Below are positions 574 through 64,000 of a stretch of DNA of 64,000 bases, one piece after another. The translations under genes and the position numbers were made by a program. Source of the stretch: an uncultured Omnitrophica bacterium (GTDB taxonomy: Bacteria > Omnitrophota > Gorgyraeia > JACQQV01); contig CAMTXH010000003.1 of assembly GCA_947085655.1 (NCBI GenBank), positions 29,850 to 93,849 of the forward strand. The letters run 5' to 3'. Below the pieces are notes generated by a model, which made no database searches, was not told the DNA's origin, and saw only the letters and a list, made by a program, of their open reading frames with translations. How positions within the stretch are numbered: the stretch's first letter is position 1; the number at the start of each line of letters is the position of its first letter.

Positions 574-638
574 TTGAATTTTGCCTGTTTTGGGCCTATT
601 ATAACCGCACGCTGGCAGTCATTTAAGATGAGTGCTAA
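574..638 (+). promoter_or_regulatory. sigma70-like promoter followed by CIRCE-like inverted repeat upstream of groES
   Basis: The promoter is TTGAAT (574-579), a 17-nt spacer, then TATTAT (597-602). The inverted repeat is CTGGCAGTC-N9-GAGTGCTAA (612-638). The right half-site matches the CIRCE consensus exactly and the left half matches 6 of 9. Confidence 0.5.
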
Positions 639-690
639 TCCTATAAGTTCCGTTCATTCGAATCGAAATCAATTAAAAAGGGAGGTAAAG

Positions 691-2623
<1,933 letters not shown>

Positions 2624-2631
2624 ATGAGACC

Positions 2632-2663
2632 CGAACTTATGGAACGTAAGTGACATAAGTTCG
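2632..2663. promoter_or_regulatory. perfect 10-bp inverted repeat CGAACTTATG-N12-CATAAGTTCG between groEL stop and second groES
   Basis: Read directly from the sequence. No T-run follows it, so it may be an operator or an RNA hairpin rather than a terminator. Confidence 0.4.
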
Positions 2664-2731
2664 TTGGCCGAATTTATCCTGAGGCCGTACAGGCCGAAGG
2701 ATCCAACACTGATATAGGATGGAGCATCGCA

Positions 2732-3019
2732 ATGAATCTGAAACCGATAGGCGATAAAATCATTGTCGAAGTCCTCGATGCGGAGGAAAGGACCAAAGGG
2801 GGCATCGTCCTTCCCGACACGGCTCAGGAGAAACCCCAGCAGGGGAAGGTGATTGCGGTCGGCTCCGGGAAAACCCTCTCCAACGGAAAGATTGTTCCTC
2901 CGAGCGTCAAACCGGGCGACCGGATCATCTTCGGAAAGTATTCCGGCAATGAGGTGAAACTCGATGAATCGGAATACCTCATTGTCAACGAAGAGGACAT
3001 TCTGGCGATTGTTAGCTGA
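2732..3019 (+). CDS. second GroES-family co-chaperonin
   Basis: The 95-aa product reads [44 protein letters not shown] and is clearly GroES-like. It sits immediately downstream of groEL. Confidence 0.85.
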   Translation: MNLKPIGDKIIVEVLDAEERTKGGIVLPDTAQEKPQQGKVIAVGSGKTLSNGKIVPPSVKPGDRIIFGKYSGNEVKLDESEYLIVNEEDILAIVS

Positions 3020-3151: not shown

Positions 3152-4312
3152 ATGGGTGAGTTTGTTGGAAGAGGCCGGAAGGCCCGCCGCTGCTACGGAT
3201 TTGATGAAATTTCGCTTGTGCCGGGTCAGGTAACGGTGAACCCGGCCGAGGTAGACACCAGCTGGGAGGTGAACGGAAAGCGGTTCCGCGTCCCGATCAT
3301 TGCCGCTGCGATGGACGGGGTGGTGGATGTTTCCTTTGCCGTCAAAATGAGCCAGCTGGGAGGGCTGGCGGTGTTGAATCTGGAGGGAGTTCAGACCCGG
3401 TATGAAAACCCGAACGAGGTTCTGGACCGGATTGCCAGCGCCAGTGCCGAAGAAGCGACGAAGCTGGTTCAGGATGTTTACCTGGAGCCGATCAAGGAAA
3501 AGCTGATTTCGCAGAGGATCCAGGAAATCAAAAAGGGAAAGGGGATCGCCGCGGTCAGCACGATTCCCCAGAAGGCGGAGCATTACGGCCCGATTGCCCA
3601 GGAAGCAGGATGTGAGGTCTTCGTAGTCCAATCCACCGTCACCACCGTCAAGCATATCGCCACTGCCTACAAAATTCTCGACTTCCGTAAATTCTGCAAG
3701 ACGATGAAAATCCCGGTGATTATCGGGAATGCGGTGACCTATCAAGTGGTCCTGGATTTGTTGGATACCGGCGCAGCCGCACTCCTCATCGGAATCGGAC
3801 CGGGTGCCGCTTGTACCACGCGCGGTGTTTTGGGAATCGGCGTGCCGCAGGTGACGGCCACGATTGATGCGGCGGCCGCACGCGACTTTTATCATAAAAA
3901 GACCGGCCGATACGTCCCGATTGTGACCGACGGCGGGATGAACCGGGGAGGGGATGTCTGCAAGGCCTTTGCCTGCGGGGCGGATGCGGTGATGATCGGC
4001 TCCGCCTTTGCCCGCGCAAAAGAGGCACCGGGCCGGGGCTATCACTGGGGCATGGCGACGCCGCATGCCAATCTTCCGCGGGGAACGCGCATCCACGTCG
4101 GCGTGACTGGAACGTTGGAGGAAATTCTGTTCGGCCCGGCCCGGCTGGACGACGGATCCCAAAATTTGATGGGGGCGCTTCAGACCTGTATGGGCAACGT
4201 CGGCGCCCGGAATATCAAGGAACTGCAGCTTACCGAGCTCATCATTGCCCCGTCCATCCAGACCGAGGGAAAGATCTTTCAGAAGGCCCAACGGGTCGGA
4301 ATGGGGAAATGA
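3152..4312 (+). CDS. IMP dehydrogenase family protein lacking the CBS/Bateman insert (GuaB-like)
   Basis: The 386-aa product has the catalytic loop [20 protein letters not shown], which matches the IMPDH motif IGPGSICTTR. It is about 100 aa shorter than canonical IMPDH. It is followed by guaA with a 4-nt overlap. Confidence 0.8.
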
Positions 4313-9900: not shown

Positions 9901-10422
9901 AAAGTGCGGCTGACCACCACAAAGCGGCTTGGGGAGAAGATGGCCATCCTGACACTCGAAGATCTTGATGGGTCTGCAGAGGTGATCGTCTTCCCAAGCG
10001 TTTTTGCAAAGACCTATCATGCCATTCGGGAGAACGCCATCGTTTTTATCAAGGGGCGCGTCAGTCTCAAGGAGGAGTCCCCCAAGGTGATTGCGGAAGA
10101 TGTTGTCTTTGCGGAGGAAGCGAAAAAAAGATTGACCGGCAGTATCGTCGTTCATCTTCAGACCGCCGCTTTGGAGGAGAGCCGGGTGAAAGCCCTGCGT
10201 GAAATTCTGGCCCGTCATCCGGGAGAAATTCCGCTCTATCTGAACTTTAAGTCACCGAATCAACAAGAGTTAAGAGTTTTGGTCAATCGCTCCCTCTTTG
10301 TAGGGCCCACCGAGGCATTTGAGGCGGATGTGGAACGTCTTGTTGGAGAAGGAGTTATCGAATACCTCCCCCAAATCGTGCCACAAAAACATCTTGACAA
10401 CAAAAAGGCGGCTATGGTATAG
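6937..10422 (+). CDS. dnaE: DNA polymerase III subunit alpha
   Basis: The protein starts MHHENFVHLHLHTQYSLLDGA, a PHP domain N-terminus. The ATG overlaps the upstream stop (TAATG). The in-frame upstream extension to 6868 is unlikely to be real. Confidence 0.95.
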   Translation: MHHENFVHLHLHTQYSLLDGACFIPHLMEMARNYKMPAIAMTDHGNLFGTIEFYDEALKHGIKPIIGCEMYVAPTDRRERVMDPLHGASSHLILLAKNEAGYRNLMKLVSAGYFEGFYYKPRIDKTLLREHREGLIGLSSCLKGEVPRCLTVGQLNQAKEAAAFFKELFEAGDFYLELQDHRLPEQKKVNEGLIRIGREVGIPLCATNDVHYLHQKDAKAHDALICIQTQTTLDDPHRMRYVTPEFYFKNPQEMTAIFKDLSEAIRSTIEIAEKCNLELDFSKTHLPSYPLPEGKSAEEYLRDLCHEGLRRRYPRVDDRLTERLEQELAVIKKAGFVSYFLITWDFVHYAKAKGIPVGPGRGSVAGSLVSYVLGITDIDPLRYDLIFERFLNPDRVSLPDIDIDFCYERRGEVIDYVTRKYGAQNVAQIITFGTMQARAVVRDVGRVMNIPYPEVDRIAKLIPYELNMTLKDAVEQEPELKKLKESNPKVTELLETSLSLEGLTRHASTHAAGVVISDRPLTDYMPLFKSNEEQTTTGYDMKSLEKIGLLKIDFLGLRTLTVIEETLQQIWEQKVDLDLNRIPLNDSKTYQLLSNAETFGVFQLESSGMRDLLKKMGPTCFEDIVALLALFRPGPIGSGMVDDFISRKHNPTLIRYDDPRLEPILKETYGIIVYQEQVMRIASTLGGLTLSQADSLRRAMAKKEPEIMERMRRDFIEGALESGTPKRVAEKVFNLIEYFSGYGFNKSHSAAYAMISYRTAYLKGHYPVEFMTALLTSEKDNTDKIVQYTNEAARMGIRILPPSINESESKFKKTGERDIRFGLSAVKNVGLGAIESILQSRKQDGPFKSLFNLCERVELRLVNRKVLESLIKCGAMDSFGLYRSQLLAMLDQALGSASKRQRDRQGGQLSFFDVLGEEKFGEGSSLPPPLKEWPEHQLLAYERELLGFYVTGHPLARFEKLLRTYGTSLGALGLHPDGEFLCVGGILGKVRLTTTKRLGEKMAILTLEDLDGSAEVIVFPSVFAKTYHAIRENAIVFIKGRVSLKEESPKVIAEDVVFAEEAKKRLTGSIVVHLQTAALEESRVKALREILARHPGEIPLYLNFKSPNQQELRVLVNRSLFVGPTEAFEADVERLVGEGVIEYLPQIVPQKHLDNKKAAMV

Positions 10423-14010: not shown

Positions 14011-14097
14011 GGACGTTTTCAGAAAGTGTCCTCCTGGCCTGCCGGCCAGGGCAGGCCAGCGTGAGGGAGATACAAGGGACACTTTCGAAAACGTCCC
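14009..14097 (+). other. long imperfect hairpin (20-bp stem, 1-nt bulge) carrying conserved motif ACTTTCGAAAACGTCCC; enclosed nested palindrome TGGCCTGCC-GGCCAGG-GCAGGCCA
   Basis: GGACGTTTTCAGAAAGTGTCC (14011-14031) pairs with GGACACTTTCGAAAACGTCC (14077-14096). It lies between the aspS stop and a lipoprotein gene. Confidence 0.5.
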
Positions 14098-14115
14098 AAG
14101 AAAAGGAGCACGACA

Positions 14116-25001: not shown

Positions 25002-25825
25002 GTCTCATTGTGATCACCAAAAACGAAGAGGCGAATCTCCGCGAATGCCTGGAGAGCGCGGAGGGACTTCCGGATGAAATTGTCATCGTGGACGATGAGA
25101 GCACGGACCGGACCCGGGAGATTGCACGGGAGTTTACCGATAAAATTTACAGCCGGAAGATGGACCTGGAAGGACGCCACCGGAACTGGGCCGCCTCCCG
25201 TGCCACCCACGACTGGGTGCTCTGGATGGATGCGGATGAACGGATGACGCCGGAACTCAAAGAAGAAATCCGCCAAACCCTCTCGCAGAGCAATGCCAAC
25301 ATCGCCGCCTACTGGATTCCCCGGAAAAACTATCTCGGAAAGAGGTGGCTGAAACATGGCGGCTGGTACGCGGCGCACATCAAACTTTACGACCGGCGGC
25401 TGACCCGTTGGCGGGAAGTGGTGCATGATGTGGTGCACCCAGGAATTGACATCGCGGAGGGGTATAGCGGGAAGGAGTTGAAAAAGCCGCTCATTCATTA
25501 CAATTTCAAGAACATAGAGGATTTTATCCAGAAGGTAAACCGGCACTCTACCTTTGAGGCGGTGAAGTGGCATCTACAGGGGAAGAGGATCACCCTTTGG
25601 CACGGGCTTTGGAAGGCCTTTGACCGTTTTTGGAAGCGTTACGTTTATAAAATGGGTTTCCTGGACGGTCTTGAGGGATTCGTTGCCGCTTTCTTGAGCG
25701 GGTTTTATCAGTTCGCCGCCTATTGCAAGTTCCGGGAAATTCGGAAAGAGGGGATTTATCTGGACCGTGTGGCTCCATCTCCTGACACAAAAGAACAACC
25801 CATTCAGCCCTCCGTGCCCCTGTAG
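24980..25825 (+). CDS. glycosyltransferase family 2
   Basis: The product contains LSLIVITKNEE...IVIVDDESTD...DADE, a GT-A DxD fold. It overlaps the upstream gene by 22 nt. Confidence 0.85.
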   Translation: MAERKKLSLIVITKNEEANLRECLESAEGLPDEIVIVDDESTDRTREIAREFTDKIYSRKMDLEGRHRNWAASRATHDWVLWMDADERMTPELKEEIRQTLSQSNANIAAYWIPRKNYLGKRWLKHGGWYAAHIKLYDRRLTRWREVVHDVVHPGIDIAEGYSGKELKKPLIHYNFKNIEDFIQKVNRHSTFEAVKWHLQGKRITLWHGLWKAFDRFWKRYVYKMGFLDGLEGFVAAFLSGFYQFAAYCKFREIRKEGIYLDRVAPSPDTKEQPIQPSVPL

Positions 25826-25892
25826 CTCAGATGGATAGAGCAGAGGTTTCCTAAACCTCGTGTCGGGAGTTCGAATCTTCCCAGGGGCACCA
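25816..25892 (+). tRNA. tRNA-Arg (anticodon CCU)
   Basis: The cloverleaf is read by eye. The acceptor stem is GCCCCTG/CAGGGGC, followed by A and CCA. The anticodon loop TTCCTAA gives anticodon CCT. T-arm GTTCGAATC. The 5' end overlaps the GT2 stop codon. Confidence 0.88.
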
Positions 25893-29293: not shown

Positions 29294-29341
29294 GGCAAGT
29301 TCCTAACGGCCTGCTTCGGCAGGTCGCCTACAAAGGTTTAA

Positions 29342-29380
29342 CCCCCCTGGGTCTACAAGACCCAGGGGGGTATTGTTTTA
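29342..29380 (+). terminator. rho-independent terminator
   Basis: CCCCCCTGGGTCT-aca-AGACCCAGGGGGG is followed by TATTGTTTT. Confidence 0.85.
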
Positions 29381-29401
29381 GTCCCTCTTGAAAGTCCGGG
29401 A

Positions 29402-29518
29402 GTTGCCTCCGCTTGCCGCTCGCTTCGATGACGCATCTTTGCTCGCTGTGGAGCAAATCCGCCGCGACACTGGATCGCGGTTTGGGATGCGTCGGATTTT
29501 CTACAGTCGCTCCGGCAA
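29402..29518 (+). repeat. 117-nt conserved structured element, copy 1 (candidate ncRNA or MITE-like element) enclosed by 13-bp inverted flanks GAAAGTCCGGGAG / CTCCCGGACTTTC
   Basis: It is 115/117 identical to 62863-62979. It contains the internal hairpins TTTGCTC-gctgtg-GAGCAAA and CCGCGA-cactgga-TCGCGG. Confidence 0.7.
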
Positions 29519-29542
29519 ACTCCCGGACTTTCTTTGGTGAGA

Positions 29543-30160
29543 CTAAAGAAAAAACGTGAGGACTACCACGAGGAGGACATACAGCCGGTAGGGCCAGCTT
29601 TGGCGGGGGAAGTCCCAGAAGAGGATTTTTTCAAAAAGGGAGGGGGGAGGAGTGTTTTGAAGGAGGCGGCGGGTATGCCGGATCCGGTGAATCAAGGTTA
29701 ATGTCCCGCCAACGGCGAGAATCCAAAGGACAACAGGCAAACGGTTGGCCAAAAGTCCCAAAAGAAGAAGAATAAGCCGCTCCGGCCTTTCCCAGAATCC
29801 GACCCGGCAGTTTTCAATGAAGTTTTCCGCCCGGGCCCGGGTGTAACTGACGAGCATTGCGCTTCCGATGGCCCAGTAGGCCGCGCCGGCCAAAAGCAAG
29901 CGCCCTTCCTTCAGATAAAAAAAGAGAATTCCCGCATAAAAAATGAGTTCTGTCACACGATCCGTGGCGGAATCCAAAAAAGCGCCGAAAGGAGTGATCC
30001 TTCCCCGTTTTTTGGCGGTGTATCCGTCCAAAAAATCACAAAGAGAAACACCGACTCCGAGAAAAAAAGCGGCGAGGAATGCGCCGCGCAATAAAAACCA
30101 AAAGGCAAAAAGACTTAAGGGGAGTGCCGAGAGGGTAATCCCGTTCGGGGAAAGGCGCAA
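29543..30160 (-). CDS. CDP-alcohol phosphatidyltransferase (putative phosphatidylinositol-phosphate synthase)
   Basis: The motif DG..AR..G....G...D...D appears as CDFLDGYTAKKRGRITPFGAFLDSATDRVTE. It is a membrane protein encoded immediately downstream of MIPS. Confidence 0.8.
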   Translation of the reverse strand: MRLSPNGITLSALPLSLFAFWFLLRGAFLAAFFLGVGVSLCDFLDGYTAKKRGRITPFGAFLDSATDRVTELIFYAGILFFYLKEGRLLLAGAAYWAIGSAMLVSYTRARAENFIENCRVGFWERPERLILLLLGLLANRLPVVLWILAVGGTLTLIHRIRHTRRLLQNTPPPSLFEKILFWDFPRQSWPYRLYVLLVVVLTFFL

Positions 30161-45185: not shown

Positions 45186-45199
45186 TTTTCCCGCATACC

Positions 45200-45370
45200 G
45201 ATAAGGGCAAACCGCGGGAGACCGCGGGACATCCGCGAGTGAGGCATTCATCCTCCGGATTCCCCGCCAGAGCGGCGGGGAGCAAAGCCATGGGTCCTTA
45301 AAACGGTGAAGGGTGTCAGAACACCTAACACCACACGCCGTTTTACAGGATCGCCAGGCTGCCGAAGTAA
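45200..45370 (+). promoter_or_regulatory. structured 5' leader with c-di-GMP-I (GEMM)-like motifs
   Basis: GGGCAAACC-CCGCGG-GAGA-CCGCGG-GAC (45205-45230) mirrors the Vc2 riboswitch P2 arm GGGCAAACC-stem-GNRA-stem-GGGAC. GCAAAGCC lies at 45282-45289. Further hairpins are CCCCGCC-agag-GGCGGGG and UAAAACGG...CCGUUUUA. The spacing between the two motif blocks is longer than in the canonical aptamer. Confidence 0.3.
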
Positions 45371-45386
45371 CGAAGGAGAATGCCTC

Positions 45387-45842
45387 ATGAGAAAACGGGA
45401 AAAGGGATTTACCCTTGTCGAAGTCTTAACTACCTCTTGCATTGTCTCCCTGATTGCCCTCCTGGCGATACCCAATTTTGTCAGGGTTTGGCAGGATGTG
45501 AATGAAAGGACCGCCCAGGAAACACTCCGGACCATTCACCAGGCGATGATTTCCTACCGGGGATTCAATTTAAGTTATCCATCCGATCTTACGGAATTGG
45601 CCGATTCCCAAGGGGGCCCTTACTATCTGAATCAGAGTGTGGCAAGCGGGAAAAAATCGGGCTACCTTTATCGTCTGGATTCGAGCGACAAATATACGTT
45701 CCGCGTTACCGCGATTCCAGAAAATCCCGGTGTGAGCGGAAAACGGTCCTTTGTCGTGACGGAAGCAGGCCTTATCGAGACAAACTCCAGTACTGTCACC
45801 ATTGTTCCGAACGCCACAGAACCTGGCCTGGACGGCAGGTAA
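45387..45842 (+). CDS. type IV pilin / pseudopilin (prepilin-type N-terminal cleavage/methylation domain)
   Basis: MRKREKGFTLVEVLTTSCIVSLIALLAIP carries the class III signal G/FTLVE. A GAAGGAG RBS is present. Confidence 0.8.
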   Translation: MRKREKGFTLVEVLTTSCIVSLIALLAIPNFVRVWQDVNERTAQETLRTIHQAMISYRGFNLSYPSDLTELADSQGGPYYLNQSVASGKKSGYLYRLDSSDKYTFRVTAIPENPGVSGKRSFVVTEAGLIETNSSTVTIVPNATEPGLDGR

Positions 45843-53473: not shown

Positions 53474-53489
53474 TCAGAAGGAGGCAACG

Positions 53490-53696
53490 TTGAAAGAGAA
53501 GATTCATCCCTCGTATGTGGACTCGACCATTACCTGCGCCTGCGGGGAAGTGATTCATACCCGTTCCACCAAGCAGAATATCCGCGTCGAAATCTGCAGC
53601 CGGTGCCACCCGTTCTTCACCGGAAAGCAGAAATTCGTAGATACGGCCGGCCGGGTGGAAAAGTTCATGAGAAAATACAAAAAAGAGAAGAAGTAA
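53490..53696 (+). CDS. rpmE: 50S ribosomal protein L31
   Basis: The 68-aa product has a CxC...CxxC zinc ribbon. It has a TTG start after GAAGGAGG. Confidence 0.85.
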
Positions 53697-53699
53697 CCG

Positions 53700-61984: not shown

Positions 61985-62848
61985 TTGAAGATCAGCGAAA
62001 TTCTGAAAAAGCGGAATGAAGGCGTTTCGTTTGAATATTTCCCGCCGAGGACAGAGCAAGGCAAAAAATCATTCCTTGAAACGATCGAAGCCCTGAAGGT
62101 TTACAATCCCCTTTATGTCTCTATGACCTGCGGCGCAGGGGGGTCCGGGGCCTGGGACAGAACCGAAGGCGCCGTGGACCTTCTCTTGGAAAAAACAAAA
62201 TGGGTCGTGATGCCGCATGTGACCTGCATGGGGATCCGAAGGGAAGAGGTAAAGGGTCTTTTGGACCGGTACCAAGAAAAGGGGATTGAGAATTTAATGG
62301 TTTTGCGGGGGGACCCCCCGCGGGACGGAACGCCGTTTGATCCCTCCATCCGGGAATTCCGTTATGCGGTTGACCTTGTCTCCTTTGTCAAAGAGTACGG
62401 ACATTTTTGCATGGGAGTTGCGGTCTATCCGGAAGGCCACCTGGAGACCGGCTCCCTCAAGGAGGATCTGGAACATGCGAAGGCCAAGATCGACAGGGGG
62501 GCCGACTTTGCCATCACCCAGATGTTCTTTGACAATACCTATTATTACCGGATGCTCGACCGGATGAAGAAGGAGGGGATTACGATTCCGGTTTTGCCCG
62601 GGATTTTACCTTTGGCGGATGTGGCGAAGGTGAAACAATTTGCCTCCATCTGCCGGGCCACGATTCCCAAGGAAATCGAGGAAAAGATGGAGCGGCTGAA
62701 GGCGAATCCGGCCGAAATGGAAAAAGCGGGGCTTGATTTTACCATACGGCAGTGCCGCGATCTTCTCAAAAACGGGATCCGGAGGGTGCATTTCTATACG
62801 TTGAACAAATTTCAGGTGACAAAAACGGTCCTGGATGCAATCCTTTAG
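61985..62848 (+). CDS. metF: methylenetetrahydrofolate reductase
   Basis: The 287-aa product is a MetF-family TIM barrel. It has a TTG start. Confidence 0.9.
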   Translation: MKISEILKKRNEGVSFEYFPPRTEQGKKSFLETIEALKVYNPLYVSMTCGAGGSGAWDRTEGAVDLLLEKTKWVVMPHVTCMGIRREEVKGLLDRYQEKGIENLMVLRGDPPRDGTPFDPSIREFRYAVDLVSFVKEYGHFCMGVAVYPEGHLETGSLKEDLEHAKAKIDRGADFAITQMFFDNTYYYRMLDRMKKEGITIPVLPGILPLADVAKVKQFASICRATIPKEIEEKMERLKANPAEMEKAGLDFTIRQCRDLLKNGIRRVHFYTLNKFQVTKTVLDAIL

Positions 62849-62862
62849 TGGAGGCCATCAGG

Positions 62863-62979
62863 GTTGCCTCCGCTTGCCGCTCGCTTCGATGACGCATCTT
62901 TGCTCGCTGTGGAGAAAATCCGCCGCGACACTGGATCGCGGTTTGGGATGCGTCGGATTTTCTACAGTCGCGCCGGCAA
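62863..62979 (+). repeat. 117-nt conserved structured element, copy 2, enclosed by different inverted flanks CCATCAGGG / CCCTGATGG
   Basis: It is 115/117 identical to copy 1. It lies between metF and gcvT. Confidence 0.7.
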
Positions 62980-63008
62980 TCCCTGATGACCTCCTTAAAG
63001 GACAAGCG

Positions 63009-64000
63009 ATGCAGATGAGGGAACAGCTGAAAAAAACCTCCCTTTATGAACGGCACCTCCGGCTCGGGGCAAAGATGATGCCGTTCGGCGGTTTTTCGAT
63101 GCCGATTCAGTACACCAGCATCACCGAAGAACACCTCGCGACCCGGAAAAAAGCGGGCCTTTTTGACCTCTCCCACATGGGGGAGTTCGTTTTGATGTCA
63201 ACCGGTGCTTCCGAATTTTTGTCACGGATCACCACCGGGGACCCTGAAAAAATGCCGGAGGGGACGACGTTATATACCCTCTTTTGTAACCCGCAGGGCG
63301 GGGTGGTGGATGATCTGATTGTTTACCGGCTGGAAAAGGAGCGTTTTATGCTGGTGGTCAATGCCGCAAACATCCAGAAGGATTTTAAATGGGTCGAGGA
63401 GAATCTCGGGCGGGATGGGGTCCGTTTTGAAAATATCAGCGACACCATTGCCCTGATCGCCCTTCAGGGGCCGATGGCCGAGACGATTTTCCGGGACAGT
63501 CCTTACCATGATGGAGCGAACCTGAAACGGAACCAGTTTCTCGAGTTTGAGACGGAAGATGCAAAAGTGCTTGTTTCACGGACCGGATACACTGGAGAGG
63601 ACGGCTTCGAACTTTATACCTCTTCGCGATTTGCCCCGAAGGTCTGGGATGCGCTTATGGAAAAGGGTAAACGCTTTGGTCTCCTGCCGGTTGGTTTGGG
63701 AGCAAGGGATACCCTCCGGCTTGAGGCGCGTCTTCCTTTGTACGGTCATGAATTGGATGAGGACATAACCCCTTTCGAAGCAGGAATCGGTTGGACAGTC
63801 GCCCTTGATAAGGAAGATTTTATCGGAAAAAAAGCACTCCTCCAGCAGAAGGAAAGGGGAGTTCGAAGGGTCCTGGCCGGTTTTGAAATGCTGGAACAGG
63901 GGATTCCGCGGCAGGGATGTGCCATTTGGAAGGAAAAAATCATCGGCGCGGTCACCAGCGGGACTTTTTCCCCTTTTTTTAAGAAAAATATCGGACTCGG
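63009..64000 (+). CDS. gcvT: glycine cleavage system aminomethyltransferase T, 3'-truncated at window edge
   Basis: The product starts MQMREQLKKTSLYERHLRLGAKMMPFGGFSMPIQY and belongs to the GcvT family. The frame is open to the end of the window and is not listed in the ORF track. Confidence 0.9.
   Translation, partial: MQMREQLKKTSLYERHLRLGAKMMPFGGFSMPIQYTSITEEHLATRKKAGLFDLSHMGEFVLMSTGASEFLSRITTGDPEKMPEGTTLYTLFCNPQGGVVDDLIVYRLEKERFMLVVNAANIQKDFKWVEENLGRDGVRFENISDTIALIALQGPMAETIFRDSPYHDGANLKRNQFLEFETEDAKVLVSRTGYTGEDGFELYTSSRFAPKVWDALMEKGKRFGLLPVGLGARDTLRLEARLPLYGHELDEDITPFEAGIGWTVALDKEDFIGKKALLQQKERGVRRVLAGFEMLEQGIPRQGCAIWKEKIIGAVTSGTFSPFFKKNIGL

Follow-up and report, generated by a model that had tools for sequence, protein, structure and literature searches.

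A multi-copy non-coding repeat closed by copy-specific arms at gene ends in Candidatus Omnitrophota, probably a MITE-like mobile element

Introduction

The described systems nearest to the repeat examined here are the Correia (CREE)-type MITEs; insertion sequences that target REP palindromes, and the small modules that go with them, are also close. CREE and bacterial MITEs are non-coding, multi-copy sequences of about 100–160 bp (PMC2649163; reviewed in PMC2229807 and PMC10969869) that insert at TA, at sites that vary between strains and often lie at gene ends or inside operons (PMC2649163, PMC2229807, PMC10969869). When co-transcribed, the inverted-repeat ends of the neisserial CREE/nemis elements form a hairpin that is a substrate of RNase III (PMC2649163). 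IS1397, ISKpn1, elements of the IS110 family and small modules insert into REP palindromes (PMC1525189, PMC12288879), and one such module, ssr9, is a short non-coding sequence moved in trans by an IS transposase (PMC1525189; PMC12288879).

The element described here resembles CREE and other MITEs in its size, its non-coding and multi-copy nature, its hairpin-forming ends and its location at gene ends and in operons, and presumably also in being cut by RNase III. However, the CREE inverted repeat is a conserved 26-bp sequence in every copy, whereas the element is constant only in the inner 5 bp (TTGCC/GGCAA), its outer 13–16 bp vary from copy to copy while staying complementary, and a TA duplication is seen in two of the four copies. 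With the REP-targeting systems (IS1397, ISKpn1, IS621 and ISPpu9/ssr9) it shares a mobile sequence that lies between palindrome halves, its position and orientation both being fixed. Those systems use a conserved and abundant REP with many empty copies and a sequence-defined insertion point, whereas for the element neither a REP family nor an unoccupied target came to light, and its arms seem to move together with the inserted sequence. REPs and REPINs are likewise intergenic hairpin-forming repeats just after stop codons within operons, but a REPIN consists of two conserved inverted REPs around a short variable spacer and the element of a conserved interior with variable arms. The conserved 20–40-nt imperfect palindrome in many copies that marks REP/REPIN families is absent: the arms differ, and ~330 kb of Omnitrophota DNA yielded no additional hairpin of the type. 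The combination of a conserved interior with copy-specific paired flanks sets the element apart from CREE, REP-targeting IS elements and REPINs alike.

The mycobacterial MIRUs and the Chunjie MITE of Geobacter are, like the element, small repeats that sit where one gene of an operon stops and the next starts; they follow the orientation of the genes and leave the operon unbroken. MIRUs occur in tandem with coupled mini-ORFs and Chunjie has fixed terminal inverted repeats and a target-site duplication; to our knowledge, neither has copy-specific closing stems. The phylum Omnitrophota is known mainly from MAGs, and we know of almost no description of small mobile repeats in it.

Results

Copies and anatomy

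The window, i.e., the whole stretch of 64,000 nt analysed here, contains two copies of a core (29402–29518 and 62863–62979) that agree at 115 of 117 positions; 29454 (C versus A) and 29512 (T versus G) account for the two differences. One 27-mer of the core is present exactly twice in the window and absent from all of 100 shuffles. An earlier note on this DNA had reported the same identity and had held that the repeat is not noise, and both statements are borne out. The same is true of its description of copy-specific, self-complementary inverted repeats around the core, the arms of which pair in both copies of the window, and of a single bulged nucleotide at the same position (A29519 in copy 1, T62980 in copy 2). 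The coordinates also agree with its placement of copy 1 beside a terminator and between the convergent OMP and CDP-alcohol phosphatidyltransferase genes: the copy lies between the OMP terminator (29341–29371) and the phosphatidyltransferase stop codon (29543–45, minus strand). The closing stem of copy 2 is present as the note had it, but is longer than the 9 bp quoted. In copy 1 the inner closing pairs join TTGCC (29403–07) with GGCAA (29514–18).

Table 1. Features of the two window copies and of the neighbouring terminator (window coordinates).
Feature	Position	Strand	Description
OMP gene native intrinsic terminator	29341–29371	+	Outside the element; 14-bp stem, 3-nt loop, T run
Copy 1, putative whole inserted unit (reconstructed)	29381–29543	+	Outer GTC/GAC pairs, asymmetric internal loop, 13-bp arms, core
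Copy 1, left arm GAAAGTCCGGGAG	29390–29402	+	Copy-specific; perfect complement of 29520–29532
Copy 1, conserved core TTGCC...GGCAA	29403–29518	+	115/117 versus copy 2; 71% versus the relative in L087
Copy 1, core blocks	within 29403–29518	+	5' TTGCCTCCGCTTGCCGCTCGCT, central CTCGCTGTGG, 3' ACAGTCGCTCCGGCAA
Copy 1, bulged A	29519	+	Between GGCAA and right arm; equivalent position bulged in 4/4 copies (A, T, T, T)
Copy 1, right arm CTCCCGGACTTTC	29520–29532	+	Pairs with left arm
Copy 2, whole inserted unit (reconstructed)	62848–62995	+	Excision with one TA gives a natural junction
Copy 2, left arm GGAGGCCATCAGGG	62850–62863	+	Pairs with 62981–62994, one C.A mismatch
Copy 2, conserved core	62864–62979	+	Identity to copy 1
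Copy 2, right arm CCCTGATGACCTCC	62981–62994	+	Bulged T at 62980

The note had also proposed a search for further copies and for complementary stems beyond the window. Such a search recovered a third copy in the same genome and a 71%-identical relative in another Omnitrophota MAG, and the flanking stems are complementary in all four copies, these two included. Copy 3 (L006 9975–10093) lies in MAG GCA_964374045.1, the same genome as the window, between trpB (stop at 9961) and trpA (true ATG at 10121). Exact matches of window proteins assign the window to this MAG and to the Logan assemblies of ERR4904390-92. Copy 3 was found by six-frame translation of the core as a protein query, the single match being a TrpA call extended by 40 residues at its N-terminus. 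The arms of this copy are GCCGTCTGCCGGGG and CCCCGGCATCCGGC, one T is bulged at the position known from the other copies, and the outermost core pair is C-G in place of T-A. The cores of the three same-genome copies (29402–29520, 62863–62981 and L006 9975–10093) are 97–99% identical. The relative, r1, was found by nhmmer searches of the core against loci of related genomes; it is full-length, belongs to MAG GCA_016206785.1 (L087 7258–7373, equal to L088 6538–6653), lies 7 nt 3' of the trpC stop and has 13-bp closing arms that pair perfectly (AAGCCTTTCAGGG/CCCTGAAAGGCTT), again with a T bulged. The whole unit measures about 145–163 bp and the core 113–116 nt; the outer arms, of 13–16 bp, differ in sequence by copy, are always mutually paired and leave one base bulged.

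The TrpA and MetF homologues with 60–71% identity bear the name Candidatus Omnitrophota, with none closer in the collections searched. GTDB genomes scanned with TrpA reached 50% at best and included no close relative, and on those loci nhmmer found nothing. Within ~94 kb of the source genome the core had no other match, and plasmid and phage collections held no match to the element. The core 20-mer GACGCATCTTTGCTCGCTGT had no exact match in genome, metagenome and viral collections; a second 20-mer, GGTTTGGGATGCGTCGGATT, had six chance matches in metagenomes and none in viral contigs, and the gapped pattern TTGCCTCCGCTTG-N(75-105)-GTCGCTCCGGCA was likewise without a match in viral contigs. A covariance model built from the four copies (closing stem plus sequence) detected no further member in 1.48 Mb of collected loci.

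Public assemblies bear the marks of the repeat. Logan short-read contigs of three samples (ERR4904390-92) all end exactly 30 nt into the core, which is k-1 for a 31-mer graph, and inside the repeat the window differs from MAG GCA_964374045.1 only at two copy-specific SNPs (29454, 62972), at both of which the short-read MAG has the consensus base. Both observations point to a collapse of the repeat in short-read assembly, and the repeat breaks such assemblies at fixed points. The public MAG also miscalls genes through the repeat: TrpA (L006 10001–10918) is called with 305 aa, 40 too many, and GcvT (L095 10851–12140) with 429 aa, ~58 too many, the true starts being L006 10121 and window 63009. 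A single frame of the element, open and running in phase, accounts for both overextensions. Two unrelated irregularities of the gene calls and assemblies were noticed. A tRNA gene occupies window positions 25816–25889, and MAG contig CAYJWX010000011.1 begins inside it, at 25883, so the short-read assembly also breaks there. A 226-nt gap between ORF calls (window 53474–53699) reads as a small conserved-looking ORF that starts TTGAAAGAGAAGATTCATCCC and probably encodes ribosomal protein L31; it was missed in the ORF calls because of their 80-aa cut-off.

Insertion sites, occupied and empty

The his-trp gene order is common to the source genome and its relatives. In the relatives (L087, L088, L089, L090 and L109) trpB and trpA overlap by ATGA, which represents the site without the element; in the source genome TrpB ends at the homologous residue, yet 159 nt separate trpB from trpA. 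After trpC, the source genome is empty, its TGA leading straight into the conserved leader (CGGAGCCACTC...GGAGGT...GTG) that precedes the next gene, and at the same place L087 has r1 plus a tail and L091 an unrelated long hairpin. Compared locus by locus, the sequences place the element at different sites in related genomes; the relatives that serve as empty sites are distant (TrpA 65–71% identical), so a hairpin could have arisen at these junctions before the core arrived. The metF-gcvT synteny, on which an empty-site comparison for copy 2 would depend, is absent in the relatives. MetF itself ends ...AIL as it does in them, so CCTTTAG is native coding sequence.

For the two window copies the empty site was reconstructed (^ marks the junction or insertion point). 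Excision of copy 1 (29381–29543 plus one TA) yields GTATTGTTTTA^AAGAAAAAACG, in which 12 nt separate the bidirectional terminator shared by the two genes from the TAA of the CDP-alcohol phosphatidyltransferase gene. Excision of copy 2 (62848–62995 plus one TA) yields ATCCTTTA^AAGGACAAGCGATG, in which metF ends AIL-TAA and an AAGGA Shine-Dalgarno site stands at an 11-nt spacer from the gcvT ATG at 63009. The two reconstructed targets are identical, TTTA^AAG inside the TAA stop, which in both copies has become TAG through the initial G of the unit. The reconstructed copies 1 and 2 are flanked by TA (or TTA); copy 3 and r1 come after TGA, with no clean duplication. All four copies match the orientation of the flanking genes and the positive GC skew, a constancy expected one time in eight by chance and only suggestive. 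Pfam lists for the window and the copy flanks examined (~94 kb of genome) contain no transposase, recombinase, integrase or reverse transcriptase.

Conservation of the core and of the closing helix

The closing helix comprises 17 pairs in the four-copy alignment, of which 11 are changed on both sides, and 98.5% of the cells are paired. Within one genome, however, the cores differ by 1–3 bases while the arms are largely different, at many positions, all of them compensated. Near-identical cores with largely different arms in a single genome are, as aligned here, not a pattern of gradual covariation.

The earlier note had seen in this anatomy the signature of a structured RNA family. Its description of the closing helix is right, but the interior behaves otherwise. 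Rfam 15 gave no match to the element over the window at gathering thresholds, and at E values up to 10 on 29330–29590 nothing except a chance match to the neighbouring terminator, so that the scan suggested by the note ended without any family. The whole element gave folding z-scores of -5.1, -6.9 and -4.3, values that are due to the closing stem, whereas the 105-nt interior alone folded like shuffles (-0.5, +0.7 and +0.1 on the plus strand; -1.3, -0.8 and -0.75 on the minus strand), as did that of r1 (+1.8 and +0.3). The hairpin TTTGCTC/GAGCAAA named in the note is intact in copy 1 but broken in copy 2, copy 3 and the MAG consensus (GAGAAAA). Nor are the inner hairpins conserved as structure in r1, where three inner helices lose 4/8, 3/7 and 3/6 pairs and none has more than one compensatory change. 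The interior of both families has, at the same place, a small hairpin with an A run on one side and a T run on the other, which is weakly terminator-like on the minus strand. With no curated family and no stable, compensated inner structure (core z between -1.3 and +1.8), a structured-RNA interpretation of the element is not supported.

Identity between copy 1 and r1 is ~90% over the last 20 nt at either end, 100% over a central block of 10 nt (CTCGCTGTGG) and ~55% elsewhere. Conserved ends around a free interior are, at the level of these alignments, the pattern of a transposable element. Substitutions between the core and r1 are spread over codon positions as 12/9/13, and 1- and 2-nt frameshifting indels are present; a coding mini-ORF or in-frame module was rejected, the frame that is open into gcvT and trpA being interrupted by a stop in r1. 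A riboswitch or ribozyme was set aside for want of any Rfam signal, and an intrinsic terminator because no U tract comes after the closing stem. Neither in the copies nor beside them was a sigma-70-like promoter found.

A separate Rfam match in the window, to the c-di-GMP-I riboswitch (45196–45366; 38.4 bits against a threshold of 35), contains two hairpin insertions of 53 and 46 nt and lies upstream of an ORF without a Pfam match (45306–45842).

Discussion

The element is real, multi-copy, near-identical between copies and conserved at its ends, and it has neither a coding signal nor a conserved inner structure. On balance, it is probably a lineage-specific, non-coding, non-autonomous MITE-like mobile DNA of Candidatus Omnitrophota whose mobile unit is the whole hairpin, a reading based on four copies and ~94 kb of the source genome. 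As in MITEs, the unit is small (below ~300 bp) and non-coding, and its near-identical copies stand at unrelated sites that differ between related genomes; of the terminal inverted repeats, TTGCC/GGCAA is constant and the flanking arms always pair, with a copy-specific sequence. That the arms belong to the unit, that the reconstructed target is the true one and that transposition occurs in trans are what we infer from the junctions and flanks.

If the whole hairpin is the mobile unit, it would move in trans by means of an unseen enzyme and land in the few permissive bases at gene ends of tightly packed operons. Two copies would have entered TTTA^AAG within a TAA stop, the first G of the unit restoring TAG, and two would have been placed directly after TGA. 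The unit would then be co-transcribed with the operon, as the lack of a promoter-like site and of a U tract after the closing stem suggests for copies 2 and 3, and the 18–21-bp closing duplex would form a stable hairpin in the mRNA. By analogy with CREE this duplex is a likely RNase III site; with no U tract behind the stem, it would not be a terminator. Downstream genes keep their Shine-Dalgarno site, and the element separates genes that are translationally coupled in relatives.

The arms are the part of the element that fits least easily. A near-identical interior between perfectly paired, copy-specific flanks is not produced by standard cut-and-paste or copy-and-paste models, and arms that are far more diverged than the cores and yet compensated are not predicted by the simple copy-and-drift of a young MITE. 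They could point to an unusual insertion mechanism, or to strong selection for the hairpin combined with concerted evolution of the core. A search of ~94 kb of the genome for a source of the arm sequences found nothing. Possibly the arms represent older subfamilies whose cores have been homogenised by gene conversion; one arm may also have been re-templated from the other in a folded single-stranded intermediate.

An alternative that we hold to be possible, if unlikely, is that the core alone is mobile and chooses as its target the apical loop of intergenic hairpins, terminator- or REP-like, that were there before, entering after the first loop base. In a two-step version, which is a further possible origin of the arms, a short hairpin element came first and was later colonised by the core. 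All four copies do have the same geometry, with the core between the Y and the R of the would-be loop and a G-C pair closing, but a search of ~330 kb of Omnitrophota DNA for an unoccupied hairpin of this apex (YCRGGG-loop-CCCYGR) found none, against four occupied ones. Arm length varies from 13 to 21 bp, as it does in natural hairpins, and core-less long hairpins exist at operon junctions in the clade (window 14016–14109; L091 after trpC); at the trpB/trpA junction, however, the overlap of the genes in relatives implies that neither arm of copy 3 is ancestral local sequence, and copies 1 and 2 give clean junctions only if their arms are removed too. REP targeting is documented for several IS families, including the movement of the ssr9 module by the ISPpu9 transposase (PMC1525189, PMC12288879), but these elements use a conserved REP. 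Here the arm bases adjoining the core are alike, as a target preference would make them (copy 2 and r1 share TCAGGG, while copies 1 and 3 have CCGGG(A)G), whereas the distal arms have no clear consensus. Taken together, the trpB/trpA overlap, the clean junctions obtained without arms and the lack of empty hairpins argue against entry of the core into pre-existing palindromes. The earlier note had proposed just such entry by a miniature mobile element as its second choice; the mobile element fits much better, and the pre-existing palindromes are not favoured. The arms are, as the sequences stand, more likely part of the inserted unit than a pre-existing target.

We regard as quite improbable a mechanism in which the element is transposed or repaired as a folded single strand, its arms re-templated and its insertion homing to stop codons (TA^AAG in TAA, or after TGA), with the hairpin unit at window 14016–14109 as another cargo of the same machinery.

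More doubtful still is a functional RNA module that would be an sRNA or would act in cis on the operon, with a selected P1 helix, conserved single-stranded blocks, gene-converted cores and arms that drift with compensation. All copies do retain the closing helix, and 11 of its 17 pairs are changed on both sides, but there are only four sequences, two of them nearly identical in the core, so covariation statistics mean little. On the minus strand the few imperfections of the helix are mild (copy 2 has a G.U and copy 3 a tandem G.A), and the arms of copy 2, copy 3 and r1 have in common a loose backbone, GCC-n-TC-n-GGG, about as diverged as the cores are between genomes. The constant orientation and the hairpin between A run and T run shared by both families would suit an RNA as well; however, no Rfam family matches, the core is without excess folding energy, the inner helices are broken in r1 and no promoter-like site is present. 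The insertion sites differ between related genomes, and the operons concerned (OMP/lipid, C1/glycine cleavage and trp) are unrelated and without a common regulatory logic.

A recombination site or retroelement RNA is hardly credible: the folded palindrome with its extrahelical base and variable arms resembles an integron attC site, and its flanking inverted repeats, in which a G is conserved where the stem ends, recall the a1/a2 repeats of a retron msr-msd, but no integrase or reverse transcriptase lies beside any copy, the attC reading is largely excluded by R boxes (RYYYAAC / GTTRRRY) that GGCAAWC / GTTGCCT does not match, by outermost bases that are variable here and conserved in attC, and by housekeeping neighbours (metF/gcvT, trpB/trpA, OMP) in place of cassettes, and the retron was rejected on its downstream genes, which are gcvT, trpA and a convergent lipid gene, with flank Pfam lists free of reverse transcriptase.

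Other hairpins in the window and in related genomes

A second hairpin-closed unit is found in the window at 14016–14109, right inside the stop codon of aspS (AAATA^G...). A 21-bp stem (GGGACGTTTTCAGAAAGTGTCC/GGACACTTTCGAAAACGTCCC) encloses its 45-nt interior, which forms a 10-bp hairpin of its own (14034–14059), and the homology of this unit to the element is not above that of shuffles. Its excision gives TTGAAATA^AAGAAAAGGAG, with a TAA stop and a Shine-Dalgarno site, the same kind of site as in copies 1 and 2. Elsewhere in the window, groEL (998–2623) is flanked by two Cpn10/groES genes (574–981 and 2732–3019; whole cluster 574–3019), and a hairpin-rich spacer of 108 nt lies 5' of the second.

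Other hairpin-rich insertions occur in related Omnitrophota where the source genome has tight junctions. These include a 183-nt spacer with direct repeats (CGACGTTGCTCA twice) between an NTP-transferase gene and ruvX (L109 5741–5923), and, in L091, the long hairpin after trpC (1447–1548) and an AT-rich 139-nt spacer between trpB and trpA (3175–3313). In the source genome, ORF6N and Rv0078B-like genes interrupt the trp operon between trpC and trpB; inside or beside them are three perfect palindromes with the common centre ...CRCAA-A/T-TTGYG... (L006 7493–7519, 7828–7846 and 7883–7907), which may be operator sites of an inserted module.
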